64,000 nucleotides of DNA from Acidobacteriota bacterium (GCA_016179055.1 JACOSC010000258.1:2833-66832), one strand, 5' to 3'. Counted from the stretch's first letter, positions 12,869 through 45,771 are shown. Made by a program: numbers and translations. The notes: a model not told the origin generated them from the letters alone.

Positions 12869-12869
12869 A

Positions 12870-16444: not shown

Positions 16445-16450
16445 CCATCT

Positions 16451-19373: not shown

Positions 19374-19389
19374 TTCACCATTCTCACTT

Positions 19390-24139: not shown

Positions 24140-24437
24140 CTCCTTAGAAACTTCGTAACCATTCACGGGTGGTGGATACCCCCGGCGGAAGCCGGGGGAG
24201 CTTCAAGATCCAGCCTACATCACGCGCCCCTCACCCCCTTGGCCCCCTCTCCCCGCCCGGCGGGGAGAGGGGGGTTGGGGGAGTGGGGCGTCGCCGGAGT
24301 AGGCTGGGCCTGAGTCTCCCCCAGCTTCCGCTGGGGGTCTCTTGTGTGCTCTCAGTGAACCCCGCGAACCGTTACGAAACTTCCCTAGTTTCATCTTGGT
24401 ATCTGCTTGCCGTCTTCGCAAGCTGGGGGACTCTTTT
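24140..24437. repeat. ~295-bp hairpin-rich repeat, family R4, copy 1
   Basis: Near-identical by eye to 30998-31290 in the same orientation. It contains hairpins CCCCCGGC-GGAA-GCCGGGGG, CTCTCCCCGCC..GGCGGGGAGAG and CCCCCAGC-TTCC-GCTGGGGG. ORFs 24169-24510 and 24215-24451 are artefacts of it. Confidence 0.8.
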
Positions 24438-24489: not shown

Positions 24490-24523
24490 GAGCAATTAGC
24501 TTTTAGCTAATTGCTCTTTTTTT
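24490..24523 (+). terminator. Canonical intrinsic-terminator hairpin (12-bp perfect stem, 3-nt loop, T7 tail) overlapping the CHAT gene stop codon
   Basis: GAGCAATTAGCT-TTT-AGCTAATTGCTC followed by TTTTTTT on the plus strand. On the minus strand the same hairpin follows the CHAT1 stop region with a weaker U-rich tail, so it may act bidirectionally. Confidence 0.6.
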
Positions 24524-27500
24524 GCTTTCTTATGCAGGAACAAGAAGCCGGAAAGCGCCGCAAGAAAAATGGAGGCCAGCATGGCCCAGTACAGTTTATC
24601 GATCCGAAAATGAGAATCGTCCAGTGAAATAGGGTCTGCATTGCCAATTAAAATAAAGGGCGCCCAGAAGAATGGATCATCATACTTTCCACGAGCGATG
24701 AGCTCGAGCTTCGCTTTTCGCAAAGCCTCTCGCTTCGGTGCGCCCTCCGCCATATGCTTATAAAACCGTGTCATCAAGTCGACCGTCGCAGGGCTATCAG
24801 CAATCGGCCAGAGCGTAGCGACGACCGAATCGACACCGGCTGACAAGAACGCCCGGCTCATCGTATCGAGGGCCTCTCCGCGCCGGAGGTGACCCGAGGC
24901 CGTGTCGCAGGCCGATAGGATCACCAAATCCGCGTGCAAATCAAGCGACAGGGTCTCGTAAAGGTACAAGTATCCGTCCTCGCCCTTTTGGTCCGCGGTT
25001 GGGTTCAAGGTAAAGGCGATACGCGAGTATAACGGATTCTGGTCATCGAGGATATTGTGTGTGGCCAAGTGGATCACTTTCGACTTGCTCGCCAACTGTT
25101 TGAACGTATGCTCGGTAGCTTCGCCTTTCAAGAAGAGGAGGCCTCCCGGAACGAGCCGGCGGATATTTCGGACCTCAGCTTCGCTGTACGGCAGCGAAGC
25201 GAGATGCTCAACCCGCGATGCACCCACGGCGTCTTGACTCCTTGTTCCGGCCAGAGTGAAATCCGGGTTCCCCATAGCCAGGAGCGGGATCTGCCGCGTG
25301 GATTCTGAATGGCCACGCTTTGGACCAAGGAGGCTCGCCGCGTAGGAATAAGATATGGGATAGCGCTTGAGGAGGTAGCATGGCTTGTAATTGTCAAAGC
25401 CGGTGACCAACATCTCGAAGGGAACATAGCTCAAGAGCCCATCCGGCACGATGATGAGGCGTGTTCCGGCGGCGACAAATTTTTCCAACGGCTGAAAGAC
25501 CGCTTTATATAACGTCTGGAGCTCATTAAGATGAAACCCTGCGCCCACGGGATCTTTTACGCGTTGGCGGTTATTGGTGAAGAGCGTGCTCGTCTCCTCG
25601 ACTAGCGTCTTCAATTGTTTTTCAGCTACGGGGATCTCTTCGATTCTGAAAAACTTCTTGCCCACTATAAACGCGATAATCTTGCGGTCAGTGACCAAGT
25701 ATTCCAACAATGTCTCGGTCTCATTGAGCTGGCTTTGGATTTGGGAAGGATTTAAAATGGCAGGGTCGTAGAAGAAAGAAAATCCCGGGTGTTGTTTTTT
25801 CATTTCCGCCAGGAGCGCGGCCTTCCGGTTATCCAGGCGCCGGACATCAAGTTCCAAATCCGCGATCTGTCGGTTGGTCTTCTCGGCAAGAGTCAGGTCA
25901 TACCGTGCCACTTGAGATTTGCGTTCCGTATTCATTGCGATGAGCTGTTGGTGTATGGCATGTAAGGCATCCTGTGTTTCGTCCATACGTCTTTTTAACG
26001 AATCGTCCAAGTGCACCTTATCCGTGAGATGTCCCCGGCGCATCAGATCAAGAATATTGGAGGCCTTGGCTTTTTCGGCGTAATAAAAAGCCAGCTCCGC
26101 GTAATCCTCGCGGTGCGTCTTCCGATGAAGCGTAAGCAGCAGCTCCACCAGGGTGTGGTAAGCCTTCATGTTCGTTTCGGAGAATCCCGTCCGTTCTTTC
26201 GGCGTGAGCCGCTTACGCACGGCTTCGATCAGCTCGACGGCGTTTCGGTAGTATTGATAAGCGAGTTCGTCGTCGCCCTTCTGTTGACTTAGATCGCCGA
26301 GGCCTTCATAGGCTTCCCATTGGAGATCCTCATAGCCGAGTGAACGACCCATCGTAAGAGCCGCCTGGTAAGATTGTTCTGCCTGGGTAAATTTCTGCAA
26401 ACGTAAGGAAGCATCTCCGATCCCCTTGAGGCACAATCCTTCAAACTGCGGACGCTTACGGGCCCGCGCTAATCGGAGGGCGATATCAAAGGTGTCGAGC
26501 GCCTTTTTGTAGAGTCCCATTTTCATGTAGGTCTTGGCGATGTTCCAGTAAACAACATTTAAGTTTAGACTCGCCTCATCCTTTTGGGACAGTGCGAGCG
26601 CTTGGTTATAAAATTCGAGCGCCGCCTGGTAATCCTCTTTGAAGAGGAAAGCATCTCCGAGAGAGCCCAAAATGGCTTCTCTTGCACGAGAGGGCGAACG
26701 AACGAGTCGCAAGGCTTGCTTATACAAATCGATCGCTTTATCATATTCGCCGATTAGAGCCGCCATTTCGCCGAGGCCTCGATACGTATTGGAGGCGCCG
26801 ACATCGTCGTGGATCTCCTTAAAAAGATCGAGTGCCTTCAGGAATTGATCGGCGGCTTTCGAGTAGTCGTTTAGTTTTTGCCAAGCGAGTTCACCGGCTT
26901 TAAGCGCCGTCCAAGCTTGTCGCTCCTTGTCGTTGGCGGCAAGGCTCAGGCGTTCGGCGCTTTGAAAGTACTTCGCTGCCTCCGCAGTTTTATCCAGGCG
27001 ACTGGAGAAGACGGCCTTGAGATAAAAGGCAAACCCTTGCAGTTGCGGGTCGCCCAGTGCTTCTGATAAATGCAGCGATCTTTCAAGATACTGAAACGCG
27101 GAGCGAAAATCTCCCAAGAGGCCATGACCACGACCCACATAGGTGTAGGCCTCCGCCATGAGTTCATGATTCCCGGTTTTCTCGGCCAAATCTTCAGCCT
27201 GTTTTGACGTCGAAAGATAGTCACGTAATTTATGAAGATCCCAAAGAATAGCGGCCTTCAATAAGTGCGCCAAGGGATCCTTGGGATTTATCTTGATCGT
27301 CTTGTCGGCATATTCGAGCGCCTGTTGGAAGTCCAAATTCAGCCGATAGGCCGTGGCAAGGCCAAAATAGATAGGGTACGGATGCGGAGATGATTTCTCG
27401 AGACGATGCAGCCGTTTGAGGGCAGGATTTAAATCCCCTTTGGCTCGGAAGACATGCGCCAGAAAAACGTATGGCTTTTGAGAACGCGGGTAGCTCTGGA

Positions 27501-27870
27501 GTGCTCTAAACAGATACTGGGCCGCCTCGTCGTAGTCCTTTTTATGATGGTGACAAAGGGCAAGACCATAAAGCAGGCCGGGATGATTGGGCCGGCGGGA
27601 AAGCTCTGCTTTAAGGAATGTGATGCTGTCTTCGAGAATTCCCTTTTTGCCGCTTGCTCGGGCCAGCAGTTCGTAGACCTCAATGAACTGAGGTTCCTTA
27701 ACGACCGTCTCTCGAGCAACCCGTATGACCTTGTCGTAATCCTCTGAGTTTAGCGTTTGAAGGGTTTGTAATTCCAGCCGATCCGACCGATGCGATGTTG
27801 GGGGCGTTGCGCGAACGAAGCTTGATTCCATCCCTAAGAGGAGTATGATGAAGAGGCTTGCTAATCGCAT
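24496..27870 (-). CDS. Exported TPR-repeat CHAT-domain (caspase-like) protease with C-terminal membrane anchor
   Basis: ORF 24496-27906. The preferred ATG at 27870 gives the signal peptide MRLASLFIILLLGMESSFVRA. About 700 aa of TPR repeats follow. CHAT His context is VIHLATHNILDD and Cys context is DLVILSACDTASG. C-terminal TM segment LYWAMLASIFLAALSGFLFL, then KKAKKE. Confidence 0.8.
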   Translation of the reverse strand: MRLASLFIILLLGMESSFVRATPPTSHRSDRLELQTLQTLNSEDYDKVIRVARETVVKEPQFIEVYELLARASGKKGILEDSITFLKAELSRRPNHPGLLYGLALCHHHKKDYDEAAQYLFRALQSYPRSQKPYVFLAHVFRAKGDLNPALKRLHRLEKSSPHPYPIYFGLATAYRLNLDFQQALEYADKTIKINPKDPLAHLLKAAILWDLHKLRDYLSTSKQAEDLAEKTGNHELMAEAYTYVGRGHGLLGDFRSAFQYLERSLHLSEALGDPQLQGFAFYLKAVFSSRLDKTAEAAKYFQSAERLSLAANDKERQAWTALKAGELAWQKLNDYSKAADQFLKALDLFKEIHDDVGASNTYRGLGEMAALIGEYDKAIDLYKQALRLVRSPSRAREAILGSLGDAFLFKEDYQAALEFYNQALALSQKDEASLNLNVVYWNIAKTYMKMGLYKKALDTFDIALRLARARKRPQFEGLCLKGIGDASLRLQKFTQAEQSYQAALTMGRSLGYEDLQWEAYEGLGDLSQQKGDDELAYQYYRNAVELIEAVRKRLTPKERTGFSETNMKAYHTLVELLLTLHRKTHREDYAELAFYYAEKAKASNILDLMRRGHLTDKVHLDDSLKRRMDETQDALHAIHQQLIAMNTERKSQVARYDLTLAEKTNRQIADLELDVRRLDNRKAALLAEMKKQHPGFSFFYDPAILNPSQIQSQLNETETLLEYLVTDRKIIAFIVGKKFFRIEEIPVAEKQLKTLVEETSTLFTNNRQRVKDPVGAGFHLNELQTLYKAVFQPLEKFVAAGTRLIIVPDGLLSYVPFEMLVTGFDNYKPCYLLKRYPISYSYAASLLGPKRGHSESTRQIPLLAMGNPDFTLAGTRSQDAVGASRVEHLASLPYSEAEVRNIRRLVPGGLLFLKGEATEHTFKQLASKSKVIHLATHNILDDQNPLYSRIAFTLNPTADQKGEDGYLYLYETLSLDLHADLVILSACDTASGHLRRGEALDTMSRAFLSAGVDSVVATLWPIADSPATVDLMTRFYKHMAEGAPKREALRKAKLELIARGKYDDPFFWAPFILIGNADPISLDDSHFRIDKLYWAMLASIFLAALSGFLFLHKKAKKEQLAKS

Positions 27871-27987
27871 AACGCACAGGTCGCAAGATCCGAGAATCGC
27901 CGGCAAAAGAATCAGGAAAGACCAGCCGTGGCATCGTCGGTGGATCGCCGGCCTTTAAGAAATAAATTTGTATTCATCGAAGATAAC

Positions 27988-29403
27988 CTAGATGTTTCCC
28001 TCCATAGCGCCAGGATCGTGTATCGTAAAAATTTCGTATGAGCGGGTTTGGCTATTCCAATTCAACACCACTCCCGTCGTGTCGAAGCTTCTCGTAAGAC
28101 TCGAGCAGGGATTTGGGTTTGGATTTACTACGCCCCCATCAACGATGGCGAAGTCAACGGGGTCGAAATTAGCCGGAGCTTCGACCAGTGTACTACCGGG
28201 TTGGGCATTCGTACCGACAACGGTCTCGTAGGCTGTTTCAAACGGGCATCTAGCGTGCAACGGTGTCATGGATGCGGGCGGAAGCGTGCGAACGATCCGT
28301 CCTCTATGGATAAAGTAAATAAGTCCGTTCCCATCAGAACTGATGCCGGTAGGATGTGAGTCTGAGCCGTCTGGAAGATAGAAATGCGACCGCTGCGGCG
28401 CCGGAAGCCTCACCGGGTCAATAAGAACTTCATGAATACCTCCTCTCCCGGCCGTGTAGAGAGCCCATTGCTCGCCATAGGACCACCGCGGATAGAAGAC
28501 ACCGTGAATTGACGCCGCCGGAGGCAAATTTGTTGCGACAATGTTGGCCGAGCCCTCTTGGATATTCTTGATCACAGAATCGCCAAGGCTACCCTCGTCG
28601 AGGACGAAAGTCTCTCCTCCCACGGAGGCAACACTAAGCGGCCGGCGAAGTAGGCTATTCCGGCATTCTCCCCCGACGAGAGTCTCTACCGGGTAGCCAT
28701 TCGTAGCTGAAACAACAGGCGCGCTTGCGGGACCCACATACGCGACTTTGACCGCGCAATTTCCTGTATCGGCAATGATCAGAGTGTTATTGTTCGGGTT
28801 GAAAGCCAGCCCGGCAGGCCGATTTAATTGGGCGGTCTCTCCTAGAGCACGCGTCTGCGTCACGCTGAGCAGGGAAATGCTCGCTACGTGATAGGGCTGA
28901 TAGTTCATTTCGAGTCGAACCTGGGCCTTGATCTCATCAACGGCGTTGGCGAATGGTAGTGTGACAAAGACTCTGAGCGAGAGGCACACAATTTGGTCCG
29001 CTTCGGTTGCAGCCGCAGGAGGCGAGATTTGGCCCCTCGCGACGGTCCTCACCGAACCTGCGCACTGAGTACATCGGCCCAGACAATCTGCCTCTTTTCC
29101 TTCGCAGTAATTTCGACAGGCGGACGAGTAATCAAGCTGATCAAGTTCCAAATCACTTGAATCACCGCCTCCTCTATCGTTGGCGCCGAACGATGCGGCG
29201 ACATCCTCGGCGGTAAGCCTGATGAGTTCGAGACTCCGATCTACAGCTATCCCTCCCACATCCTGAGATTGAAACGACGCAATCGGGATCACAACCAGAT
29301 GTCCCCTGTCCCCTGGCAAACGGGTCAGAGTGCCTTCCGCGAATACAGTGACAGCGGCAGCCCACAGCGCAGCCAAAGCAATGGCTAAGCCGATCTTTGT
29401 CAT
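27988..29403 (-). CDS. Secreted protein with N-terminal Cx3C-x6-Cx3C module and a probable beta-propeller body
   Basis: 471 aa. Signal peptide MTKIGLAIALAALWAAAVTVFAEG. Cys cluster CRNYCEGKEADCLGRCTQC at nt 29062-29118. The remainder is beta-rich. No family assigned. Confidence 0.55.
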   Translation of the reverse strand: MTKIGLAIALAALWAAAVTVFAEGTLTRLPGDRGHLVVIPIASFQSQDVGGIAVDRSLELIRLTAEDVAASFGANDRGGGDSSDLELDQLDYSSACRNYCEGKEADCLGRCTQCAGSVRTVARGQISPPAAATEADQIVCLSLRVFVTLPFANAVDEIKAQVRLEMNYQPYHVASISLLSVTQTRALGETAQLNRPAGLAFNPNNNTLIIADTGNCAVKVAYVGPASAPVVSATNGYPVETLVGGECRNSLLRRPLSVASVGGETFVLDEGSLGDSVIKNIQEGSANIVATNLPPAASIHGVFYPRWSYGEQWALYTAGRGGIHEVLIDPVRLPAPQRSHFYLPDGSDSHPTGISSDGNGLIYFIHRGRIVRTLPPASMTPLHARCPFETAYETVVGTNAQPGSTLVEAPANFDPVDFAIVDGGVVNPNPNPCSSLTRSFDTTGVVLNWNSQTRSYEIFTIHDPGAMEGNI

Positions 29404-29497
29404 ATTCGCCTCCTAAATACAATTTGCCTTACCCTACATGTAGAGCATATCGGCCGGCCGATTGGAAAACTTTAGTCGTTTTTTTACTGCGGTCAAA

Positions 29498-30196
29498 TTA
29501 TGGGCTGATGCCTGTCTCCAGGGTCCTTAAGAGCGACTGCGCGTCGGCGGCGAGCCGTCCTCCGGTCTTCACGATCTCGCTAAGTTGTTCGCGGGCCTGA
29601 TCTGGTTGATGAAGTTCTAAATACGATTTGGCCAAAAACCATCGGGCTTGCTCTTTCTCACGGTCCTCGGCCGAAGCAATCGCGCGCAGGAATGGCGTCA
29701 CAGCCTTACTGTGTTGGTTGACGCTGTAGTAGCAATACCCCAAGAGCAGGTAGCTCGAAGAGGAGGGTTTCGTTTGAACGTGGGTTTCCAAGGCGCCGAT
29801 GGCTTCCGCGTACCGGCCCTTTTCAACAAGCCGCGTGACTCTCTGCGGCGGAAGCTCGACGGCTCGAATTACCGGCGCCGGCTCGCTTTTTGGTATATGA
29901 TGTTCGTAATAGACAAAGAGACTTCCGACAACCAATAGCACGGAGGCCAAGCCGGACGCCCATTTGAGAAAGTGGAAGCCCGCAGGACCGACGTGGCCCG
30001 GATTGAGTCGAAGCCCCCGGGCCTCGTTAAGAATAGGATACAGTTCGCTAGAGTCCCCCAACTCCTGCACGCAATAGACACAGTGTCTGAGGTGGTCCTC
30101 GAAGATATCCTTCTCCTGCACTTCGATCGCATGAAACTGATACGGTGCAAGCAGGAGCCCAATATCAGGGCTTGTGCATTTTAAACGTCTAAACAT
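29498..30196 (-). CDS. Anti-sigma factor: zinc-binding ZAS N-domain, one TM helix, periplasmic TPR domain
   Basis: 232 aa. H-x3-C-x2-C motif HLRHCVYC. TM segment ASGLASVLLVVGSLFVYY. The C-terminal part is TPR-like (YLLLGYCYYSVNQHSKAV.., WFLAKSYLELHQPDQA). It starts 12 nt after the sigma gene. Confidence 0.75.
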   Translation of the reverse strand: MFRRLKCTSPDIGLLLAPYQFHAIEVQEKDIFEDHLRHCVYCVQELGDSSELYPILNEARGLRLNPGHVGPAGFHFLKWASGLASVLLVVGSLFVYYEHHIPKSEPAPVIRAVELPPQRVTRLVEKGRYAEAIGALETHVQTKPSSSSYLLLGYCYYSVNQHSKAVTPFLRAIASAEDREKEQARWFLAKSYLELHQPDQAREQLSEIVKTGGRLAADAQSLLRTLETGISP

Positions 30197-30208
30197 AGTA
30201 GCCTCCCT

Positions 30209-30760
30209 TTACTCTTGAAATTTTAGCCGGCGGGTCGTTAACTTCTGCGCCAAAAGGTTGCGAAGGCGGCTAAGTTTTTTCCGGACGCACAGGACGCTTA
30301 GCCCAAGCTCCCGGGCAATCTGGGGACTCTCATAGCCATCGATGGTCAATTCATAAAGTCGTTGCTCGGTGGGGCCTAAGCCGGCGAGGACCTTGAGGAT
30401 GAGCTCGCGGCGCTCTTGCTTAAGTATGTTCTCTTCTGCGTTATTGAATGCACTGGGGCTCGAACCGGCTGAACGGAACAGAGCAAAGGCCTTATCCAGC
30501 AGATTTTTCTTTCGCTGTTTGGTTCGGAAAAACATGGACATTTCCCGTTTCATCACCGCAAAAACCCAAGGCATTAGCTCGTTCAAATCTGTCTCTTCGA
30601 TCCGTCGACTATCTTTCGAAAGATCCTTAATGGCTTCCTGAGCGATATCTCTCGCGTCTTCGGGCTTTATTTGTTTGGACCGCGCGTAATTGACGAGGAT
30701 ATCGGTCAGGTGAGCCAGCTTTGCATCGAGCGTTGTTTCCTTGGTGACTAGCAAACTCAT
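30209..30760 (-). CDS. ECF-type RNA polymerase sigma factor (sigma-70 regions 2 and 4)
   Basis: 183 aa. Region-4 HTH ESPQIARELGLSVLCVRKKLSRLRNLL and a divergent region 2. It is the first gene of the four-gene operon. Confidence 0.7.
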   Translation of the reverse strand: MSLLVTKETTLDAKLAHLTDILVNYARSKQIKPEDARDIAQEAIKDLSKDSRRIEETDLNELMPWVFAVMKREMSMFFRTKQRKKNLLDKAFALFRSAGSSPSAFNNAEENILKQERRELILKVLAGLGPTEQRLYELTIDGYESPQIARELGLSVLCVRKKLSRLRNLLAQKLTTRRLKFQE

Positions 30761-30830: not shown

Positions 30831-30868
30831 GAAAGCTGCCGGATGCATCGCATCTGTGACCAAAAAAA
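30831..30868 (-). promoter_or_regulatory. Bipartite promoter-like motif, site D (gene strand: TTTTTTTG-GTCAC-N13-CCGGCAGCTTTC), upstream of the ECF sigma operon
   Basis: Plus strand gaaAGCTGCCGG-atgcatcgcatct-GTGAC-caaaaaaa. The proximal edge is 70 nt from ATG 30760. It has the same two boxes and the same 13-nt spacing as the sites at 33073, 35200 and 36992. Confidence 0.6.
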
Positions 30869-30997
30869 GTAACTACTCAGTCGGCGCTCCTTAGCCCCGT
30901 AGGGGCGGCATGTTTATAGCAGAAGCCATTGAATAGGAGTCAAGCTCCATAGGAGCGACACGTACAGAGCCTTTATTAGCTAAGCCTGCACATGTCG

Positions 30998-31290
30998 CTC
31001 CTTAGAAACTTCGTATCCGTTCACGGGTGGTGGATACCCCCGGCGGAAGCCGGGGGAGCTTCAAGATCCAGCCTACATCACGAGCCCCTCACCCACCTGG
31101 CCCCCTCTCCCCGCCCGGCGGGGAGAGGGGGGTTGGGGGAGTGGGGTGTCGCCGGAGTAGGCTGGGCCTGAGTCTCCCCCAGCTTCCGCTGGGGGTCTCT
31201 TGTGTGCTCTCAGTGAGCCCAGCGAACAATTATGAAACTTTCTTAGTTTCATCTTTGTATCTGCTTGCCGTCTTCGCAAGCTGGGGGACT
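30998..31290. repeat. ~295-bp repeat family R4, copy 2 (direct orientation relative to copy 1)
   Basis: It aligns end to end with 24140-24437. It is nested between inverted modules CCCCGTAGGGGCGGCATGTTTATAGCA (about 30896-30925) and its complement (about 31322-31349). ORFs 31027-31356 and 31073-31279 are artefacts. Confidence 0.8.
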
Positions 31291-31490
31291 CCTCCTACGG
31301 AGCTTGACCGTTTTGGAATCCCAGTTACTATAAACATGCCGCCCCTACGGGGCTGAGAGGCATGCCTGAATAGTTACAAAATAAAAATAATAAGCATTCG
31401 TTTCCATCTCCTCCTTCATATCGGCAGATTGACCTGGCGGCTATACCAAAAAGCATGCTGGTGTACGGGAACTTGCACTAAAGAAATTCT

Positions 31491-31887: not shown

Positions 31888-32970
31888 CTACAAAGAGTGA
31901 AGGGGCTGCCACCCTGTGCCGCCAAAGGACGGATCGAACTGCCATAGGATCGGAGCATTATCGACTGCGAACACCGTAGCTTCACCGTTACGGTTCTGCA
32001 CGGCAGCAACTCCTCCCCACACGTTCGTGAGCGGCGACAACAAGGCCCAACCATTGCCCGCGAAGAGGTCGCCGAACTCGCGATCCCATTCCCACACCCG
32101 TGCAGACCCATCGTCGGCAAATACAACAGGATTGCCGTTGTAGTTGCGAGTCGCACTAAGCGCTACAAAGTTTCCTTCCGACGACAACAAGCTCCAGCCA
32201 CCGGCGTCGGAATTGAAGTGCCAGAGCGAGAGAATGGCGTCCAGCACAAACACAACCGGCTTTCCCGTTGCGTTCTGCGTCGCAGCTATCTCACCCGTGC
32301 AATTGCATTGATTGGACAGCGACCTCCAGTTGTTGCCGCCCAGCGCGCGATTGAACTCGAACAGTTCTCCGCTTCCATCAACGACGAATACAGATGCCTG
32401 GCCGAATTCGTTTCGTGTCGCGCCTATGCCGCGATAATTCGCTGCGGTGGTCATTTGTGTCCAGCCGTCCGAAAACCGGGCAGCGGTTTGAAACCACGAC
32501 CACAGTTCACTACTGCGCGTTACCGCAAAAACCGCGGGCTGTCCGTCATCGGTTTGCGTTGCGCTGATCTGCCCTGAAATGTCCGGCACTCGCGCAGTGC
32601 GAAGCCCCAGCCAGCCGTTTCCTCCGTTGCTGGGATTGTGCTCGAAGATGTTGAACTGGGAATCGACGACAAAGACTACCGGCTGCCCGAGTGAGTTTTG
32701 GGTCGCGGTGATCCCCACAAATGTTCGAGCCGGATTCGAATCAGCCATGTGGAGCCATCCGATCGCAGAGTTAGGGTTGTGTTGCCACAATTCGTCGAAT
32801 GTCTGCCCGTGACGGATCACGTAGGCGACCGGCTGACCGAACTCGTTCCTCGTCGAAGCGACTCGTTCGCTGGAAACCACGCGACTCTGGGCGTTTGCCC
32901 AAGTGGGAGTCAGCAGAACCACGAGGGCAGCCATAAGGATCGAAATTGAAATTCTGAAGTTTATTTTCAT
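31888..32970 (-). CDS. Secreted seven-repeat beta-propeller protein (tectonin / PLL-lectin-like repeats)
   Basis: ATG 32970 with AAGGAG upstream. Signal peptide MKINFRISISILMAALVVLLTPTWANAQ. About seven ~48-aa repeats of the form ATQN..GQPVVFV.D....LWHF......GW..L. Confidence 0.6.
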   Translation of the reverse strand: MKINFRISISILMAALVVLLTPTWANAQSRVVSSERVASTRNEFGQPVAYVIRHGQTFDELWQHNPNSAIGWLHMADSNPARTFVGITATQNSLGQPVVFVVDSQFNIFEHNPSNGGNGWLGLRTARVPDISGQISATQTDDGQPAVFAVTRSSELWSWFQTAARFSDGWTQMTTAANYRGIGATRNEFGQASVFVVDGSGELFEFNRALGGNNWRSLSNQCNCTGEIAATQNATGKPVVFVLDAILSLWHFNSDAGGWSLLSSEGNFVALSATRNYNGNPVVFADDGSARVWEWDREFGDLFAGNGWALLSPLTNVWGGVAAVQNRNGEATVFAVDNAPILWQFDPSFGGTGWQPLHSL

Positions 32971-33072: not shown

Positions 33073-33112
33073 TATAGCTGCCGGATGCGCGGGATGAGTG
33101 ACCAAGAAATAA
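33073..33112 (-). promoter_or_regulatory. Bipartite promoter-like motif, site A (gene strand: TTTCTTG-GTCAC-N13-CCGGCAGCTATA)
   Basis: Plus strand tatAGCTGCCGG-atgcgcgggatga-GTGAC-caagaaataaac. It lies about 100 nt upstream of ATG 32970. Confidence 0.6.
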
Positions 33113-33937: not shown

Positions 33938-35122
33938 TTAGCACCCTCGCATACATTCGGCACGGTCTTCACTGCAATTCTGCAAGCATAAGGTTCTTGC
34001 TCGACCTGTAAGTTCCCGACAATCTGCCACGCAGGTCTCCCGCTGCTGCGTACAACTGTGTACACAGTCCGGATCGACGGGCGGTGGTGGCGGCGGTGAT
34101 GCTAGAGAGCCACAATCGCTCACACAGAAAGGGTCTGTCATCGTGACACTTGGCACATCACTGAGCGCCTGGATCGACCGTCCATACCGGGGGTCGACGG
34201 TCGGGAATAGTGTCCGACCATCCCAGTTTTCTTCGGCAACGAGGGGCACGTCGATCACGATGCGCTCCAGGCCAAGGAAATAAGCGGTATACGGATTTGA
34301 CGTCAAGTGACCCGCCACGAATTGCCCCCATGCAGAGGGCCATGCCTGCGTGAGATCCAACGGGGCGCTGAATACATGTCCAGGATTTTCCATCGTCCCG
34401 TCGCCGAGATAATGGGTCACGCGCACCGATTCGTGTCCGACCCGATTTCCCGTATCACCATCGGTTGCTCGATGATCGCGGACAAATGTCATGGAATAGA
34501 TATTCCGAGCTTGGCTGATATACTGACCGCCATTGGTGTAACTGCCAAAGCCATAGTCCATACCCCATCTCGAATTGTCGTAACCGTCTGGTGTCGTCAA
34601 ATTCGAATCCGGCAAAGCGAACCACACATAGTACGTCGCCGAACCTTGTTGCATTTCGGCGTACACGAGGATGTGCCCACAGAACCCAGGCGTGCGGCCT
34701 GCCGTGATTCCGGTTGGGCTCACCATGGGCACCCATGAAAACGGCGAGCCGATGTGGTTTCCTGTTCGGGCTTGAGCGACGCCTGATCCGAGAGTACCCG
34801 GAACGCCAGTGCTACCGTCGGGCGAAATCGCGTTAAGGTCGAGTCCGAAGGGAAACGGCATATCCATATCCATGCCGGCTCCTTGATAAGAGTCGATTCG
34901 GCAGTTTGCGTTCGAGTCGTAGATTGCAATCGCCGCCGTCGCCGCAAATTGAGCAGGAAACCAGGTGCGGGTGGGACTCATTTGGCTGGCGGTCAACTGG
35001 GTCCAGGGGCTTTGAGCGAGACCGTCAGGACTGACGCAAGCGAAGAGTGCGATGAGGCCTAGAACACCGAACCGTAAGTACAATCGCCTCAGTCGCGTGC
35101 CTTTAATTGATAATTCGTTCAT
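33938..35122 (-). CDS. Secreted protein with C-terminal poly-Pro linker and four Cx3C motifs
   Basis: ATG 35122 with AGGAG upstream. Signal peptide ..LRFGVLGLIALFACVSPDGLAQS. The C-terminus is PPPPPPVDPDCVHSCTQQRETCVADCRELTGRARTLCLQNCSEDRAECMRGC (nt 33941-34096). Confidence 0.55.
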   Translation of the reverse strand: MNELSIKGTRLRRLYLRFGVLGLIALFACVSPDGLAQSPWTQLTASQMSPTRTWFPAQFAATAAIAIYDSNANCRIDSYQGAGMDMDMPFPFGLDLNAISPDGSTGVPGTLGSGVAQARTGNHIGSPFSWVPMVSPTGITAGRTPGFCGHILVYAEMQQGSATYYVWFALPDSNLTTPDGYDNSRWGMDYGFGSYTNGGQYISQARNIYSMTFVRDHRATDGDTGNRVGHESVRVTHYLGDGTMENPGHVFSAPLDLTQAWPSAWGQFVAGHLTSNPYTAYFLGLERIVIDVPLVAEENWDGRTLFPTVDPRYGRSIQALSDVPSVTMTDPFCVSDCGSLASPPPPPPVDPDCVHSCTQQRETCVADCRELTGRARTLCLQNCSEDRAECMRGC

Positions 35123-35199
35123 ATCTAATCTCCTTTCCAAAGTCATAAGACTTGTCGTTTCATCGTATGGCTCCATCTTTCATTGCCCACGGTCACTAG

Positions 35200-35239
35200 G
35201 ATAGCTGCCGGGAGGCCCCGATGTGTGACAATAAAATTT
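35200..35239 (-). promoter_or_regulatory. Bipartite promoter-like motif, site C (gene strand: TTTTATT-GTCAC-N13-CCGGCAGCTATC)
   Basis: Plus strand gatAGCTGCCGG-gaggccccgatgt-GTGAC-aataaaattt. It lies 78 nt upstream of ATG 35122. Confidence 0.6.
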
Positions 35240-35457: not shown

Positions 35458-36819
35458 TCACCGCAGTAGGATCGGCGCCTCGAATTTGAAGTCGATCATG
35501 GTGCCGTAGAACCCGCCACTTGGGCTGACGAACATCACGTCTCCGGTCGCGCGGCCTCTGGCACGTAGCTGTTCTAGCGCTGCAACGTCGAACGTACCGG
35601 TGAATCCTTCACGTTGCATGACGACGCCTCGGGACTCGCGATATGGACCGATAAAGTCTGCACTGTCACCCGCCGCGAGATGTACGGCGTCTACGCGCGT
35701 CGACTGTTCGTCGGGCTTCCATAGAGCGAAGCTGGCGGCCACGAACTGCGGCGTATTGAGTCCACAATCAAACCTCGCAACGACGATCAAGTTGCTGGTG
35801 GTTCCCGTAGCGCGATTCGTCGGGTAGCGGCTGCCGTCGCGCACGGCATAGCCCGATGGTAACAACAATCCGATCTCGACGTAGTTGGGGAAAAACCCTA
35901 TCACTTGTTCGCCAGTGTCGATCGCGCCGTCGGCTTTCCCATCCTGGTTTTGATCGAAGTACGCGATGACACTGGTTGGGTTGCCCCCGCACAGAGGATT
36001 GGTGAAGTTGGGCAGATCGGTCACGGTCACCGTCGCCGTCCCGCCAGTCAACGTGGTCGCGTAGATTCGTTCCCCGCCAAGGCTGGGCGACTCGCCATCC
36101 TCACTGTACGCGTTGATCACGAACATGTAGCGAGTGTTGGGAAGCAGGTTGCGAAATCGGAATGACTGCGTATTCTCAGGCACACGGACGTCAGGGAGCC
36201 AGGTACTCGGGCCTTCAAGAATGTGGATGATGAAACCATACTCGTTGTCCGAGTTATCTTGCCAACTCACGTCGATCTCTCGGTCGGACAGCACGACAGC
36301 TCGCCGGTTCGACGGGCTAATCGGCGGGTTGTACACGGCAAACGGACGAGGAAACACCAACAAGGTCCGCAACACGCCGATGAATATTCCTTCTGCGGGC
36401 CCGGGGCAATTCTGGAACAGCGTAAGAGACACCACGCCGGACGTTGCAGTGTCCGGCACGATGGCACGGAGCTCCCGATCACTCACTCGCGTGAACTCGC
36501 GCCTCTCGAACGTCGTTCCGCTCGAAAAGCTGATCCTCGCTTCGGGGGGCAAGCGGTTAAAGCCGCTGCCGACGATGTTCATCTCAGTGCCCGGACTTCC
36601 AGACCATGGCGAATAGCCTGTCACGAAAACCCCGTTCGGAACCGATGGGGTACAGGCATTGGCGTCGAGAGGTTGCCCGTCTCCAGAGCTTTGAGATCGG
36701 ACGTATCCTATATTCAGGGCTAGCATGGCCACAAAAGTTGCTACCGTGAGTGTCAATTGCAGATAGCTCTTCCCATGAGCTACTGTACTTGAGGTTCGCT
36801 TTCCATAATCGATTATCAT
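35458..36819 (-). CDS. Secreted protein with IPT/TIG-like and fibronectin type III-like domains
   Basis: 453 aa. Hydrophobic leader LQLTLTVATFVAMLALNIGYV. IPT-like VTGYSPWSGSPGTEMNIVGSGF. FN3-like VVLSDREIDVSWQDNSDNEYGFIIH..LLPNTRYMFVINAYSEDGESP. The leader ACAAGAAAAGGAGAAACATC is nearly identical to that of the gene at 32970. Confidence 0.6.
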   Translation of the reverse strand: MIIDYGKRTSSTVAHGKSYLQLTLTVATFVAMLALNIGYVRSQSSGDGQPLDANACTPSVPNGVFVTGYSPWSGSPGTEMNIVGSGFNRLPPEARISFSSGTTFERREFTRVSDRELRAIVPDTATSGVVSLTLFQNCPGPAEGIFIGVLRTLLVFPRPFAVYNPPISPSNRRAVVLSDREIDVSWQDNSDNEYGFIIHILEGPSTWLPDVRVPENTQSFRFRNLLPNTRYMFVINAYSEDGESPSLGGERIYATTLTGGTATVTVTDLPNFTNPLCGGNPTSVIAYFDQNQDGKADGAIDTGEQVIGFFPNYVEIGLLLPSGYAVRDGSRYPTNRATGTTSNLIVVARFDCGLNTPQFVAASFALWKPDEQSTRVDAVHLAAGDSADFIGPYRESRGVVMQREGFTGTFDVAALEQLRARGRATGDVMFVSPSGGFYGTMIDFKFEAPILLR

Positions 36820-36991: not shown

Positions 36992-37031
36992 GATAGCTGC
37001 CGGCACCGCCGTGTGTGTGACAAGAATAATT
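36992..37031 (-). promoter_or_regulatory. Bipartite promoter-like motif, site B (gene strand: TATTCTT-GTCAC-N13-CCGGCAGCTATC)
   Basis: Plus strand gatAGCTGCCGG-caccgccgtgtgt-GTGAC-aagaataatt. It lies about 173 nt upstream of ATG 36819. Confidence 0.55.
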
Positions 37032-38220: not shown

Positions 38221-41128
38221 AAGACGTCACCTCTACGAAGGCCCGACCGTTATAACAGCCGATCATCAGAAAGGTGGCACGCGGCCTGCCTTTTATGCAC
38301 CGATAGGACCGTTTAAATTATGTAACCCCTCTCAATCCCCTTTACCGATCAGAACAAACCCGGCCCAATAAAACGGGTGGCTATAAGGGCTGGACTTAAT
38401 CATGCGCAGTTTGGCTTGGCGCAGCGCGTCGGCCTTATCGGCGCCGTTTGGGGAGCGCAGTCTTCTAAAGAACGCGGGCATGAGTACGGACGTGGATTGG
38501 TCGGATACCGCCCATAAGCTGGCCACGACCGACGGCGTGCCGGCGTACATAAACGCGCGGGTCAGCCCGATCAGTCCCTCGCCGCGGACCTGCTTTCCCA
38601 GCGCGGTCTGACAAGCGGACAGTATGACGAGATCGGCCTTTAACTTCAGATTGAATATTTCGTGGACTTGCAAAAAGCCATCTTCCGGAGAGTTATTATC
38701 CAGCGTCAGGACAATGGAGGAGAACTGCGGCTTTTCCTCATTCAACAACCCGTGGGCGGAGAAGAGGATGTATTTGTATGCTTCCAAGTTTATGCCGGTC
38801 TTGACATTCTCCTCGCTGGCCTTATGCCGTAAGAATAGCCGCGCCTCGCCGGGCGGAAAGACTTTGGCGATGGACTGGGCTTCCCACTGGCTATGGGCCA
38901 GCCGGGCCAATCCTCCGCGCACGACGCCGCGCAGTAGACTTTTTTCCACATTGCCGGATCGCCGTTTTCCTTCGTAATATACAGGATCTGCGAACGCCAG
39001 AAACGCCTTCTGTTTGACGGGTGCCACTTCAAGGGGCTTAGTCAGCGTAGCTAAAACTGTGGCCGATGGAACATACTGGATCGCCAACTTACGGATCAAG
39101 TAGGGCAAAGCCGCGAAGTCGGCGCCGGCTTTGACCGGTTGGGTTAGCAAGGCTTCAAACGGCAAGTACACCAGTGGTCCATCGGGGACAATAATGAGGT
39201 GCTTCTTACCCGCGAGCCGCTTCGCCGCCGGTCCTACCAGCGTTCGATAAAGGTGATGGGCCAGGCCGGCATATTGACCGGCGTAGCCATGCAGCTCTTG
39301 CTCGGCGGGATCGGTTTTCATGATGAGGTTGCGCAGAGCCTTCACCTGCGCGGTTAACTTATCAGCGCCCGGCAGTCGATACAACTGGTAATCATTCTGC
39401 GCGACGGCAAAAAGATAAGAGGCTTTCTCCCCGACGACATACTCCAGCAATGCGGATTCTGCATCCAGTAGTTTCTGCGCTTGTTCCAAGGTGATGGGCT
39501 GAGGATAGAGTAAATCGGCGTACTTCGGATTTCTCCGGCGGGTCTCCTGTTGCAGCTTTTCATATTCGTCGTCAAACTCGCGCTGCGCGGTGTGTAATTC
39601 TTCCAGTGTCGCCGCCCTGGAATCACTTGGACCGGCTGGACCAAGGAGCGTGGCACTCAGCCGCCTCTGCTTGTCCGACAGCGTGGCCGTGAGTCGCTGT
39701 TTCCTTTGTAGCAAGTCGGGATCGATTCCTTGCGAGACCTGGGCTTTGGATTCAGCCAACAGCTCAAGAAAGGCGCGCGCCTTGGCCCGCTCAGCATACT
39801 CGAACGCTTCCCGATCAAATCCGTGGGCGGGTTCCCTCATATGCGCTTTGGCTAGCAGTTCAATAGCTCCTTCATACACTTCGAGTTTGCTTTCTAAAAA
39901 ACTAGACTTTTGCTCAGGCAATTGGATCTGACTGCGAAGGTTTTCGATCGTCTCGATCGCGAGCCGATAGTGCCCGAACGCCGCGTCGCGTTCTCCTTTC
40001 TGTTCGAGCGCGCGCCCCAGTCCGTAATGGGCTTGCCAAACAATTTCTAGCATGCCGGTTTGTTCCCCGGTGGCTAACGCGGAACCAAAGCCTGCGATGG
40101 CCTCTTCAAGCCGGCCCGTTCTTAGGTACAGATCGCCTAAACTATTCCACCCATAGCCTTGAACGTATTTATGCCCCTGCTCTCCCAAAAGCTTCATTCC
40201 GTCTCGAATGTATTCCAGTGCTTTCTGGTATTGGCCTGACCGTTTGTAGACCTCTCCGATGCGAGCTAAGGTTTCCCCTTTAAAGAGCATGTTCTTTATC
40301 TCTTCCGCTATAGTCAACGACTGTTCCAGTGCTTCCAATGCTTTTGCATATTCACCTATCTGAATGTATAAGTCCCCGATATTGGAAAGATTTCTTTCCT
40401 CTTCGAGCCTATCCGGAAACTCTCTCGCGCTTATCAATGACTTCTCGTAATACTCCAGGGCTTTAGCATAATCGCCCAAATCCTGATAAATGATCGCTGT
40501 ATTTCCCAGGCTGGCACCCGCTCGCCGTTTGTCTTCAATACCTGAAAGCCCCAGGAATATTCCAACCTCCTCATGATTAGCTGCCAGCGCCTTGGAGTAG
40601 TTGCCTATTTCCCGATAGATGTTTGAGAGGCCTCTTAAGGCTAGCCCACAATTAGGTTTGTCTCCTATCTCACAAGCAGCTTTTTGTGCTTCTTTCATGT
40701 ACTCTAAAGCTTTCTCGTAATTTCCTAATTTGGCATGAAGCCCTCCGATATGACCCATTAAGCGATAGACCCACTCGTAGCCCAGGTGACGTCCCAACTT
40801 TAATCTCCAGCTTGAAGAATTCTATAGCGTTCTGGTAATCATACAAATCCTTGTAGCGCGCTGAGATGACATCAAGAATTACCAATGTTACTTCCTGGTC
40901 GTTAACGTTTTTGGCTTTTGAAAGAGCAGTAAGATACGCTTGCAAGGAATGTTCTGAGAGTTTTCGAGAGCTCATCCTCCCATACAGATTTCCTAAACCG
41001 TAGTAGGGACCCGGATATTCTGGGTTAACTCGAATAATATCGTTTAGATATTCGCTTAGGTCGGCCAGGTATATTCTCTCTTCAAGATAGCTAGCGACTA
41101 AAGGCTCATAGCACATTAGAAGACTAGG

Positions 41129-42985
41129 CCCAAAATAAGCGAAGTTACTTCCTGGGCGCGAACAGGCTGTTTTTGCTCGAGCCGGCCGGGCCGCGACAAC
41201 GAATTCTTTCGTCGTAGGACTTGCGAGGCAGATCCTGAAGACACGACTCCCTTTGTCATTTGCTTTTTGGGAATTGCTCGTGGTGTTTCTGCCTCGACCC
41301 TCCCTTCGCCCGGGTTTTTTGGTTTTGCACCGACGAGCCGGGCCGCTCGCTGGTGCAGTGCAATCAGGCCAGCTTCAGCCGCTTGATGTAATCAAACGTG
41401 GCGAAAAACGTCTCGAGATGCTTGCTGTAGGTCAGGATGCGATAGACAAGGCGGCGGCCCGTATTCACGATCTGGCACGGCAGCTGGATGAAGCTGATCA
41501 GGAAGCGTTTGAACTCCATCCGCACGATGTCCCTGCGTGCACTCTTCGATTGCGTCACCAGCCCGTACCAGGCCTTGAGGTTCCAGGCCAGAGCTGCAAT
41601 GACCATGTAAGCCCAGTTCGAAACCAGTCCGTCCGACGGCATTCTCAGTGCGTTCACACCGCTCTTCAGCTGTGCAATCACGTTCTCCTGGTTGCAACGA
41701 TCGTTGGCGAAGAGCACAACTTCTTCCATCGTCATCTCACGATCGTCGGTAATGTAGAAGAAGTACCGGATCTCGTCGAACAACCGCTGCTCACCTTTTT
41801 CGACGGTCAGGTTCTTGCGCACCGCGACCATCCGATAGGTCTTCTCACAGCACGTCGGTCGGTAGTCGAATTCAGCCACATCTTCGCCCTGCAGGTGGAT
41901 GTTCTTATATTCACGCTCTCTGATAATCTGCTCCTTGACGTTGTCCGGACGGGCACGTTCCTCGGTTTTGATCTCGTAGCGCGGAGGCCTCTCAAGCCGC
42001 CTCCATGCGCTCTTGGGCAACTCATCGGCCAGCCTCACCACGTTCTTCTTGGCGTCGAAACCGAAAACAAAATGCACCCTTTCGCTCCATCGATCGAAGT
42101 TCTTCGTCAGCGAGAAATCCGTGTCCCCACGCAGCCACACTTTTTGGAAAACCGGATCCACCAGAGAAATGGCCCGGTCTATCCACTCCGCGGCTCCGTC
42201 CGACGAAGGTCTGTTGCCTGGCCGGTTGACCAGATAGAGAACCTCGTTGGTGTTGGCCAAACTCACGATCAGCGGCGCGTAACCCCAGATCCCCGTGTAG
42301 GCAATGTCCATGCCCTGCTTGCACTCGCCCGTCGTCCCGGCAATCGTTCCATCCACGTCAATGATCCCCTCTTTTCGGAACGACTGGCCCTGAAGTGCCC
42401 AGACCTTCTGGCGCGCAGCGTTATACGTCTCTTGAAGCTCAACAATCGAAGGCACGTCGAAGCGCCGAAGAAAATCACCGGCCGTCGTCGGATCTGGAAT
42501 CCTCGTTGCTCCAAGACCATTCATGTACGCTTCGTCATTACGCAATCTCTCAATGTCTTCAAGACACGTCCCGCCCGAGAGCACGTTGTATGCGATGTTC
42601 AGGACGTGGTCCGATTCGTGGTAGGGCACATGAAACTTCAGCAGCTCGATCCTGTCGTTGATCGCAACGTCGAGTTTCAGTCTGCAAACCAACTTGTGGA
42701 TCGCACCGAGGCCACCGTAGCCGATAGCTCGTGTCCGGTCACTGATCTCGTACACGATGTTGGAGTCCTTGAACATGGGGTCGGGCTGGTTTCCGAACTG
42801 TTTTCGCTCAAGCCGCTTTTCAAGATTTTTCTTGTCTCTGCGCAGGATTTTGTGGTCTCTTTTCTTCATCTGGACTATGCTCCTTTTTGGTTTGGAAAGT
42901 TTGGTGCCAATCGTATCATAGCCAATAAAGGAGCATTTGTCCAGCCCTATCTTCCAAATCCGCGCAGAAACCACGCTGGTTTAGG
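41129..42985 (-). mobile_element. Insertion sequence (IS1380/IS4-like DDE transposase) with flanking GACTAGG duplication
   Basis: A 7-bp direct repeat GACTAGG lies at 41122-41128 and 42986-42992. Imperfect terminal inverted repeats: CCCAAAATAAGCGAAGTT.. (left) versus CCCTAAACCAGCGTGGTT.. (complement of the right end). Confidence 0.75.
41364..42974 (-). CDS. DDE transposase of the IS element
   Basis: 536-aa ORF. ..HESDHVLNIAYNVLSGGTCLEDIERLRNDEAYMNGLGATRIPDPTTAGDFLRRF.. is typical of IS1380/IS4-type transposases (family assignment from memory). The start may be the internal ATG at 42869 (MKKRDHK). The 580-aa plus-strand ORF 41253-42995 is its shadow. Confidence 0.75.
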   Translation of the reverse strand: MVSARIWKIGLDKCSFIGYDTIGTKLSKPKRSIVQMKKRDHKILRRDKKNLEKRLERKQFGNQPDPMFKDSNIVYEISDRTRAIGYGGLGAIHKLVCRLKLDVAINDRIELLKFHVPYHESDHVLNIAYNVLSGGTCLEDIERLRNDEAYMNGLGATRIPDPTTAGDFLRRFDVPSIVELQETYNAARQKVWALQGQSFRKEGIIDVDGTIAGTTGECKQGMDIAYTGIWGYAPLIVSLANTNEVLYLVNRPGNRPSSDGAAEWIDRAISLVDPVFQKVWLRGDTDFSLTKNFDRWSERVHFVFGFDAKKNVVRLADELPKSAWRRLERPPRYEIKTEERARPDNVKEQIIREREYKNIHLQGEDVAEFDYRPTCCEKTYRMVAVRKNLTVEKGEQRLFDEIRYFFYITDDREMTMEEVVLFANDRCNQENVIAQLKSGVNALRMPSDGLVSNWAYMVIAALAWNLKAWYGLVTQSKSARRDIVRMEFKRFLISFIQLPCQIVNTGRRLVYRILTYSKHLETFFATFDYIKRLKLA

Positions 42986-43574
42986 GACTAGGTAGCAGGT
43001 ATACACATTTCTTACTGTATTCTATCGCCTTTTTGTAGTCCTTCTTGAGGAAGGAGACACGTGCCAAGGCATGCCACAGATTCGCGTTTTCTTTATTCTG
43101 CTGCAAAAGTGATTCCAGATAATGTTCACCTTCGGCCAGTCGTCCGCGCAAAGCATAAATTTCCACCAAATCATAAGCATGAGAATAGGTCGGATCATCC
43201 GCAATCAATGTCTTAAATATTAATAGCGCCTCATCATACTTTCCTTGGTAGCTGAGTCGCAAAGCTTTATTAAATTTGCTTATACTGTTGGCTCTATCTA
43301 TGTTTTCGGCGGCAGTTGTCTGGCAGCTTAGCAATAAAATCAGGAGGACGAATAGACAGGCAGACATTCTGTTTATGATTTCCTTCTTTTCCTGTCTTAT
43401 TCCCCTTGGTGTTTTCATAGCGATATCAAACCAAAATGGTCGAGATATTATAGGTGCGGCCTCACTATAGAGCATTTTAACCAGAGTTACAATATCTTGA
43501 AGGAATGGCGCACCCCAGATTACCTTTCCAACTCCTTAATTCGGTGGCTGGGGCGCGCCGTTTATCTTTTCCCC

Positions 43575-45518: not shown

Positions 45519-45771
45519 CGCTTCCCTCCTTGATAGAGTTATTGTTTCCGCCATAACTAAAGTTTTTATCTTTGGCCCTTTCAAGAAGCACCACTTGGTG
45601 CGTCCACCCATAAAGACGCACCAGCTTTAAAAACCTGTACATCGAAAATGGAAGAATTTTTCATTTTTTCACTTCAGGCTCCGAGTATGACGGGTTCACA
45701 CGAAAGGAGTAGCCAACACGGGTGAGCTTAATTTATACTCCTACAGGGGAATAGACGATTGCTTCCTCTCT

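Follow-up and report, generated by a model that had tools for sequence, protein, structure and literature searches.

Can a caspase-like protease encoded in the operon of a sigma factor of the extracytoplasmic function (ECF) type serve as the protease, or the sensor, that sets that sigma factor free? The question is raised by a locus in a 64,000-nucleotide stretch of DNA from an Acidobacteriota bacterium (GCA_016179055.1, JACOSC010000258.1:2833-66832; hereafter the window), where genes for an ECF sigma factor (sigma1), an anti-sigma factor, an exported NHL-repeat protein and an exported, membrane-anchored TPR-CHAT protein (CHAT1) follow one another. A plausible answer is that this operon encodes a split, trans-acting variant of DdvS/DdvA, with CHAT-driven proteolysis of the anti-sigma factor. 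By analogy, the locus may in effect be a two-polypeptide version of the Myxococcus DdvS-DdvA pair.

Gene content and predicted topology of the operon

The four genes occupy the minus strand from 30760 to 24496, all co-directional and separated by intergenic gaps of 12, 94 and 117 nt (Table 1). The first encodes sigma1, which scores 60.2 bits against TIGR02937, a model of ECF-type sigma factors with a cutoff of 42.9. Pfam matches to Sigma70_r2 (residues 21-83) and r4_2 (residues 119-167) fall slightly below their cutoffs, and none of the ECF subgroup models searched reached its cutoff. The profile match and the size of the protein (183 aa, with regions sigma2 and sigma4) are those of an ECF (group IV) sigma factor, strongly predicted to be cytoplasmic. 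It is nearly an orphan: a word-index homologue search found a single relative, 69% identical, on a 799-nt contig, and a search of labelled genome contigs gave one weak, irrelevant match only.

The anti-sigma gene starts 12 nt downstream of sigma1. Residues 35-42 of its product, HLRHCVYC, fit HxxxCxxC, and this N-terminal motif in a gene directly after the sigma gene places the protein in ZAS class I. A single transmembrane (TM) helix at residues 77-95 is followed by a proline-rich linker and then, across residues 118-225, by matches to TPR_19, ANAPC3 and TPR_16, an order which strongly predicts that the ZAS domain lies inside the cell and the linker and three TPRs outside. The Pfam model zf-HC2 gave no score on this protein, and the NCBIfam anti-sigma model NF052375 matched it at E = 2e-4, under the model cutoff. 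The third gene encodes an orphan of 471 aa with an N-terminal leader, a CRNYC-x6-CLGRC-x2-C module and one NHL repeat; the word-index search returned no relatives of it, and its single-sequence AlphaFold2 (AF2) model is unusable (pLDDT 33).

The last gene encodes CHAT1. I use the ATG at 27870, as NCBI does, giving 1124 aa (the open reading frame, ORF, is open to a TTG at 27906), and the protein is identical to one in GCA_016201345.1 (contig JACQDC010000054.1). It comprises a Sec-type leader (MRLASLFIILLLGM...VRA), a TPR solenoid over residues ~28-700, a CHAT domain (PF12770, E = 2.5e-63) and a C-terminal TM helix at residues 1093-1111, followed by HKKAKK. The putative catalytic residues are His938 (codon 25057-25059), kept in 37 of 38 sequences of a homologue alignment, and Cys988 (codon 24907-24909), kept in all 38. 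CHAT1 is thus strongly predicted to have a signal peptide, a TPR solenoid of about 700 aa, a CHAT domain whose dyad is intact, a C-terminal anchor and a positively charged cytoplasmic tail. In a confident alignment-based AF2 model (pLDDT 83.4, pTM 0.75), the chain begins with a leader helix and a disordered linker, continues through the TPR array of about 30 helices and ends with the alpha/beta CHAT domain and a terminal helix. The best fold matches of this model in the PDB are separase, DdvA (8rw5, E = 7e-15; 8rot, E = 3e-14, the identity of which I checked as DdvA) and Csx29. A profile of the CHAT domain run against PDB sequences also placed DdvA at the top (E = 5.8e-5), with Csx29 after it (E = 2.5e-3). 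The CHAT domain alone found no matches in the PDB by phmmer, and a full-length query was swamped by TPRs; the profile and fold searches are the informative ones. The closest database protein is 28% identical.

Much of this layout had been drawn in an original prediction for the window, and it held up well. The four co-directional, closely spaced genes are there, as are the cytoplasmic HxxxCxxC domain, single TM helix and periplasmic TPRs of the anti-sigma factor, the signal peptide and Cx3C-x6-Cx3C module of the third protein (to which the NHL repeat can be added), and the signal peptide, TPRs, CHAT domain and C-terminal TM helix of a protein put at about 1100 aa. The dyad proved intact on alignment, and leader and TM predictions put CHAT1 and the anti-sigma TPRs on the same extracytoplasmic side, as had been proposed.

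Comparison with known systems

The same prediction held that an ECF-linked CHAT module in the envelope would be functionally new. This claim fails, given the precedents of DdvA (PMC6061681; PMC11506125) and Csx29/Csx30 (PMC10028731) and the presence of an N-terminal leader, indicating export, in 88 of 120 CHAT1 homologues (12 of the 120 have a C-terminal TM helix). DdvA of Myxococcus xanthus is a ZAS anti-sigma factor with a periplasmic TPR-CHAT region of about 900 residues and a canonical dyad (PMC6061681; PMC11506125). A protease role for its CHAT domain was suggested as early as 2018 (PMC6061681), and a 2024 cryo-electron microscopy study proposed that a signal-induced cut of the DdvA linker by CHAT is the site-1 step before RseP, which degrades DdvA once TPR-CHAT is removed (PMC11506125). 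DdvA-like fusions have been reported in Myxococcota and one Comamonas only (PMC11506125).

The window operon shares with DdvS-DdvA an ECF sigma factor and a single-pass anti-sigma factor of ZAS type, an ECF-linked TPR-CHAT region of separase/craspase kind with a His-Cys dyad (periplasmic in CHAT1 by predicted topology), further exported or peptidase genes within the operon, and a proposed logic in which a signal-activated CHAT site-1 protease would act ahead of RseP. It differs in that these parts do not form a single polypeptide: the anti-sigma factor (232 aa) has no CHAT domain and retains only ~110 aa of periplasmic TPRs, whereas CHAT1, a separate chain with its own signal peptide and C-terminal anchor, lacks HxxxCxxC and any sigma-binding domain. 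Any cleavage of the anti-sigma factor by CHAT1 would therefore be intermolecular. The host, too, is different (Acidobacteria), and the predicted regulon consists of three exported orphan proteins rather than cyclic oligonucleotide-based antiphage signalling systems (CBASS) or CRISPR-Cas.

In Craspase, Csx29 cleaves Csx30, an inhibitor of an ECF-type sigma factor, and so relieves the inhibition (PMC10028731). That system (Cas7-11, Csx29, Csx30, CASP-sigma/RpoE) resembles the window operon in linking a TPR-CHAT protein to an ECF-type sigma factor and its inhibitor, and CHAT1 matches Csx29 significantly by fold and by profile, but Craspase is cytoplasmic and RNA-guided whereas CHAT1 is predicted to be exported. 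I rejected membership of type III-E: sigma1 scores 32 bits against NF041236 (cutoff 100), CHAT1 has a signal peptide, and the window contains no tandem or CRISPR repeats, no Rfam CRISPR match and no cas domains among its annotated ORFs.

Canonical regulated intramembrane proteolysis, as in Escherichia coli (DegS/RseP-RseA-sigmaE) and Bacillus subtilis (PrsW/RasP-RsiW-sigmaW), begins with a periplasmic site-1 cut that is followed by a site-2 cut. The single-pass anti-sigma factor with a cytoplasmic sigma-binding domain is common to those systems and to the window, but the candidate site-1 protease here is neither a PDZ serine protease nor PrsW: it is a cysteine protease of caspase fold that carries a large TPR sensor and whose gene belongs to the sigma operon itself. 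Exported TPR-CHAT proteins of HetF type from cyanobacteria, Acidobacteriota and Bacteroidota share the architecture of signal peptide, TPRs and CHAT, but most lack a sigma/anti-sigma neighbour in the flanks present, and none of them exceeds 28% identity to CHAT1. In the library searched, the literature that contains both 'CHAT domain' and 'ECF sigma' amounts to PMC6061681, PMC11506125 and PMC10028731, and the main text of the ECF reclassification paper (PMC7826278) does not mention CHAT. The split two-gene arrangement appears to be undescribed in the literature; an ECF Hub entry is possible.

Recurrence of the linkage at other CHAT loci

Because sigma1 and the NHL protein have next to no relatives, conservation of the linkage was assessed across the CHAT family. 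A three-sequence CHAT alignment was used to retrieve 80 metagenomic loci totalling 641 kb, and labelled genomes were sampled through six homologue contig look-ups. ECF sigma factors were detected with an iteratively built sigma hidden Markov model; precomputed Pfam annotations of the neighbours had overlooked those in two of the look-ups, from Pyrinomonadaceae (L004) and Thermoanaerobaculia (L090).

Strong ECF sigma matches were found in 13 of the 80 metagenomic loci. Their distance from the CHAT gene never exceeds 3.2 kb and is at most 1.2 kb for 12 of the 13, with none farther out in 437 kb of non-CHAT flank; clustering within 1.2 kb has a binomial P of 1.7e-4. The pairing is also present in two of the six look-ups, L004 and L090, both metagenome-assembled genomes of Acidobacteriota, and once more in the window itself, in a second module described below. 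Thus, the adjacency of sigma, anti-sigma and CHAT genes is conserved beyond this operon. The linkage frequency of ~16% is a lower bound because many sampled contigs have short flanks (neither flank reaches 1.5 kb in 25 of the 80 loci, and only one does in 33).

Beside nearly every CHAT-linked sigma gene is a gene for a single-pass membrane protein, most with HxxxCxxC. By Pfam, these partner anti-sigma factors carry zf-HC2 in L004, L010 and L023, and periplasmic TPRs in L010, L023 and L075, where the TPR architecture matches that of the window anti-sigma factor. Gene order varies. L010 and L088 have sigma, anti-sigma and CHAT in this order, L010 being especially similar in that its sigma gene is followed by a ZAS-TM-TPR anti-sigma gene and then by a CHAT gene whose product has a signal peptide, a C-terminal TM helix and a CHAT domain 43% identical to that of CHAT1. 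The order is CHAT, sigma, anti-sigma in L014, L017 and L004, convergent in L036, L044, L048, L067, L075, L077, L023 and L090, and divergent in L032 and L050. The CHAT-linked sigma factors fall in several unrelated ECF lineages. An N-terminal ZAS motif was found in none of the CHAT ORFs of the 80 sampled loci, so no fused form occurs among them. These data suggest that the partnership of ECF factors with TPR-CHAT proteins is much broader than the distribution reported for DdvA-like fusions, restricted to Myxococcota.

Some individual loci deserve a remark. In L036, L044 and L048, a conserved promoter-like element (TGAGAA-N19-TCTATAT) precedes three related CHAT-adjacent sigma genes. L004 has a gene for Peptidase_C11 (clostripain-like) directly upstream of CHAT, and ~7 kb upstream a second ECF sigma gene (618-1184, minus strand), whose product is 46% identical to the CHAT-adjacent one, with an anti-sigma-like neighbour (3-473, minus strand). 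L083 (148-14257) holds a tandem array of four co-directional TPR-CHAT genes, each encoding ~980-1140 aa, and the sequence present includes no sigma gene.

A shared promoter motif and a predicted regulon

Alignment of upstream regions brought out a shared element, T-rich-GTCAC-N15-CCGGCAGCT(A/T)T. The pattern GTCAC-N12-18-CGGCAGC occurs four times in the 64-kb window against 0.04 expected, and none of 100 shuffles had more than one match. All four copies have the form GTCAC-N15-CGGCAGC, lie on the minus strand, are co-oriented with the gene downstream and stand 28-177 nt before ORF starts. One precedes sigma1, as would be predicted for an autoregulated ECF promoter. The others precede three genes for orphan proteins, all of which have N-terminal leaders: a 360-aa internal-repeat protein, for which there was no Pfam or PDB match, a protein with Cx3C motifs and an fn3/TIG-domain protein. 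No PDB sequence relatives were found for the predicted regulon proteins.

In the whole window, Cx3C clusters occur only in the 33938-35176 protein and in the NHL protein of the operon. The former has five Cx3C motifs at its C terminus, after a poly-proline linker, and the latter has twin Cx3C motifs near its N terminus. In these clusters the two proteins may have in common a helical module stabilised by disulfides. Since both ORFs with Cx3C clusters stand under a predicted sigma promoter with the same motif, I read 24.5-37.0 kb as one putative sigma1 regulon, and since the motif precedes the sigma operon and the three exported-protein genes, the unit would reach to ~37 kb and be larger than the one described earlier. 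The earlier suggestion that secreted proteins are co-regulated with the operon gains direct support from the same four occurrences. With four promoters within 7 kb, the predicted regulon is compact and suited to reporter assays.

A lexA gene (37134-37760, plus strand) is divergent from the fn3/TIG gene, and the fourth motif copy falls in their common intergenic region. I considered whether the motif is a LexA operator and rejected this reading, as the motif is asymmetric, is co-oriented with the downstream gene in four of four cases and in one case belongs to sigma1. The motif is absent from the neighbouring restriction-modification island at 9-19 kb, and for the second module no common promoter motif came to light.

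A proposed mechanism and its alternatives

The account I put forward, tentatively and with somewhat less than even confidence, is a split DdvA-like pathway in which CHAT1 would act in trans as a site-1 protease or sensor gated by a signal, and the operon would have positive feedback. At rest, sigma1 would be held by the anti-sigma factor, whose periplasmic domain would block the site-2 protease. A periplasmic signal, probably a protein, would be read by the TPR array of CHAT1, perhaps with help from the co-encoded Cx3C and beta-propeller proteins. Activated CHAT1 would then clip the periplasmic linker or TPR domain of the anti-sigma factor in trans (site 1), after which an RseP-type site-2 protease and cytoplasmic proteases would release sigma1, which in turn would transcribe its own operon, CHAT1 included, and the three exported-protein genes. 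As TPR-CHAT is a domain of the anti-sigma factor itself in DdvA, Rosetta-stone logic suggests, by analogy, a physical or functional link between the split partners.

Several points weigh against this pathway. ECF pairs usually adjoin their target genes, so the adjacency would equally fit CHAT as an output. CHAT1 stands inside the sigma operon as its last gene, where an output gene would be, and in L044 a near-match to the sigma promoter of the convergent clade (TGAGAA-N19-TCATAAA; a single locus, and hence weak evidence) before a separately transcribed CHAT gene would place CHAT inside the sigma regulon, again as expected of an output. An ECF neighbour was not detected in 67 of the 80 CHAT loci, the 64-kb window showed no gene for a site-2 protease, and both sigma1 and the NHL protein are orphans. 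Cleavage of the window anti-sigma factor by CHAT1 is at this stage a plausible hypothesis drawn from sequence. In DdvA itself, cleavage by the CHAT domain is still unproven, the dyad mutants having no phenotype and autocleavage not being seen (PMC11506125).

What, then, might CHAT1 do instead? It could be an exported protease under sigma control, which matures, remodels or degrades extracytoplasmic proteins (for example co-regulated proteins of the Cx3C, beta-propeller and fn3 kinds, or else foreign ones), while the ECF pair senses an envelope cue by its own means. The habit of ECF pairs of lying beside their regulon genes speaks for such an output, as do the place of CHAT1 at the end of a sigma-driven operon, the L044 near-match, and the other exported proteases and proteins found near CHAT genes: a Peptidase_C11 in L004, a Peptidase_S8 in L090, two exported proteins in L023, and the Kelch and Peptidase_S74 proteins of the second module. 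Yet the partner that stays constant across loci is the sigma/anti-sigma pair and no accessory protein; the DdvA fusion shows that TPR-CHAT can serve as an anti-sigma factor's own sensor domain; and several partner anti-sigma factors have a small periplasmic TPR domain only, with no obvious sensing module. Because of the DdvA fusion and these small-TPR anti-sigma factors I favour a signalling role and regard the output role as rather unlikely, if a serious competitor. Less probable still is a non-cleaving CHAT1 that, like RseB or the corresponding domain of DdvA, docks as a shield or co-sensor on the periplasmic TPRs of the anti-sigma factor and blocks site-1 and site-2 proteases until a TPR ligand or CHAT self-processing releases it, the dyad serving another substrate or autoprocessing. 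Both partners do have extracytoplasmic TPRs and are tethered to the membrane on the same side, and the TPR-CHAT region of DdvA demonstrably blocks RseP, with dyad mutants that have no phenotype (PMC11506125), but the near-invariant dyad (37/38 and 38/38) argues for catalysis, and the CHAT protein of the second module, like most homologues, has no membrane anchor. That the adjacency is a coincidence, in Acidobacteria with many ECF pairs and many TPR-CHAT proteins, I consider very improbable. The 67 loci lacking a detectable ECF neighbour and the spread of CHAT-adjacent sigma factors over more than a single ECF group would fit it; against it stand the confinement of 13/13 sigma genes to 3.2 kb, and 12/13 to 1.2 kb, in 437 kb of flanks (P = 1.7e-4), the occurrence of the pairing twice in 64 kb, and the tight spacing of the genes in one operon with a single promoter. 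A search with PADLOC gave nothing specific and no defence-system assignment, and a DdvA-like defence role is therefore not supported here.

The split DdvA-like pathway has a practical attraction. DdvA, a fusion, is the only studied CHAT-ECF system of the envelope, and its proposed self-cleavage has gone undemonstrated, since protease and substrate are joined in one chain and the signal is not known. In a natural two-gene version, protease and substrate could be expressed, mutated and titrated separately, so that the hypothesis of CHAT as a site-1 protease would become directly testable. The survey of CHAT loci offers a first entry point to function for exported bacterial TPR-CHAT proteins, a very large and uncharacterised family. 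A wider generalisation is conceivable but doubtful: separately encoded, exported TPR-CHAT proteases would serve in trans as site-1 proteases or sensors dedicated to a widespread, so far uncatalogued class of ECF pathways, present in Acidobacteriota and other phyla and spread over several ECF lineages, with DdvA as a special case and Cx3C and beta-propeller proteins as co-sensors or substrates.

A second, interrupted module

The original prediction also placed a paralogous but decayed module at 38-49 kb. Paralogy is clear: CHAT1 has no better match anywhere than the TPR-CHAT protein of this second module (CHAT2; 30% identity over 818 aa, E = 2e-93), and the module's sigma factor (sigma2) is the best match of sigma1. 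Between the two anti-sigma factors, likeness is confined to the ZAS region. Decay is equally evident, but three details depart from the prediction. The module is arranged divergently, with sigma2 and its anti-sigma gene on the plus strand and the genes for the Kelch protein, the Peptidase_S74 protein and CHAT2 on the minus strand; CHAT2 has no C-terminal anchor; and three mobile elements break the module, namely a ~2-kb DDE insertion sequence in the TPR-coding region and two Y1-transposase elements. An IS200-like element (47106-47808) with 53-nt inverted repeats that are 92% complementary lies between sigma2 and its anti-sigma gene, and an ORF resembling REP-associated tyrosine transposases (RAYT) lies in the divergent intergenic region, with ~75-nt palindromes on both sides (45776-45850 and 46448-46522).

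Table 1. Positions of the operon, the predicted regulon, the second module and the flanking repeats in the window
Feature	Position	Strand	Details
Predicted regulon and operon (24.5-37.0 kb)
Fourth motif copy, before fn3/TIG gene	36996..37021	-	Motif
Predicted regulon gene: exported fn3/TIG-domain protein	35458..36819	-	453 aa
Third motif copy, before Cx3C-protein gene	35204..35229	-	Motif
Predicted regulon gene: exported Cx3C protein (five C-terminal motifs)	33938..35176	-	394 aa from NCBI start
Second motif copy, before exported repeat-protein gene	33077..33102	-	Motif
Predicted regulon gene: exported internal-repeat protein	31888..32970 (ORF to 33030)	-	360 aa; N-terminal leader
Predicted autoregulatory ECF-type promoter	30835..30860	-	Motif GTCAC-N15-CGGCAGC, 75 nt before sigma1 start codon
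ECF sigma factor sigma1	30209..30760	-	183 aa; TIGR02937, Sigma70_r2 and r4_2 matches
Anti-sigma factor	29498..30196	-	232 aa; HLRHCVYC, TM 77-95, Pro-rich linker, three periplasmic TPRs (motif, TM, Pfam)
Exported orphan protein	27988..29403	-	471 aa; Cx3C-x6-Cx3C-x2-C module, NHL repeat, beta-rich region (leader, motif, NHL match)
CHAT1, TPR-CHAT caspase-like protease, exported, C-terminal membrane anchor	24496..27870	-	1124 aa; PF12770, leader, TM, dyad
Second module (38-49 kb)
CHAT2, C-terminal part of paralogous TPR-CHAT protein	38332..40797	-	SAHG and LSAC contexts intact; no C-terminal TM
DDE-transposase insertion sequence splitting CHAT2	40983..42994	-	Transposase 41364..42974; dip in GC content
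CHAT2, N-terminal TPR fragment	42981..43475	-	Signal peptide
Accessory exported protein	43575..44402	-	Peptidase_S74 domain
Accessory exported protein	44541..45611	-	Kelch beta-propeller
ECF sigma factor sigma2	46566..47105	+	179 aa
Anti-sigma factor	47869..48801	+	HILQCPVC, one TM 127-145
Repeats
294-nt palindromic MITE-like repeat, downstream of operon	24140..24433	.	95% identical to 30998-31291
Second 294-nt repeat copy, upstream of sigma promoter	30998..31291	.	Nested in inverted repeat 30890-30955 / 31292-31357

Other features of the window

The two 294-nt repeats are directly oriented and bracket the operon from the sigma to the CHAT gene. Each is an imperfect palindrome with ~170 nt self-complementary, and fragments of the repeat are found near 23.6 kb and 2.2 kb; they resemble miniature inverted-repeat transposable elements (MITE) or repetitive extragenic palindromes (REP). 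The NCBI contig JACQDC010000054.1 ends within the downstream copy.

The stretch from 9235 to 19610 on the minus strand is reminiscent of a defence island. It encodes a type I restriction R subunit split over two ORFs, of which the second ends in a weak Peptidase_S24 match, and between hsdR and hsdS an 855-aa subtilase and an AAA ATPase; next come genes for a YhcG-type PDDEXK nuclease and a 23S-rRNA-IVS protein. The stretch showed no hsdM gene.

Palindromic repeats of ~47 nt (GCGCCCCAG...GCCTGGGGCAA...CCCCAGG) occupy intergenic positions on both sides of the regulon (23742-23788, 23952-23998 and 33505-33553). Finally, in keeping with the acidobacterial origin of the window, two matches to the Acido-Lenti-1 small RNA (RF01687), of 52.8 bits each, lie inverted and ~100 nt apart at 1979-2024 (minus strand) and 2120-2165 (plus strand).

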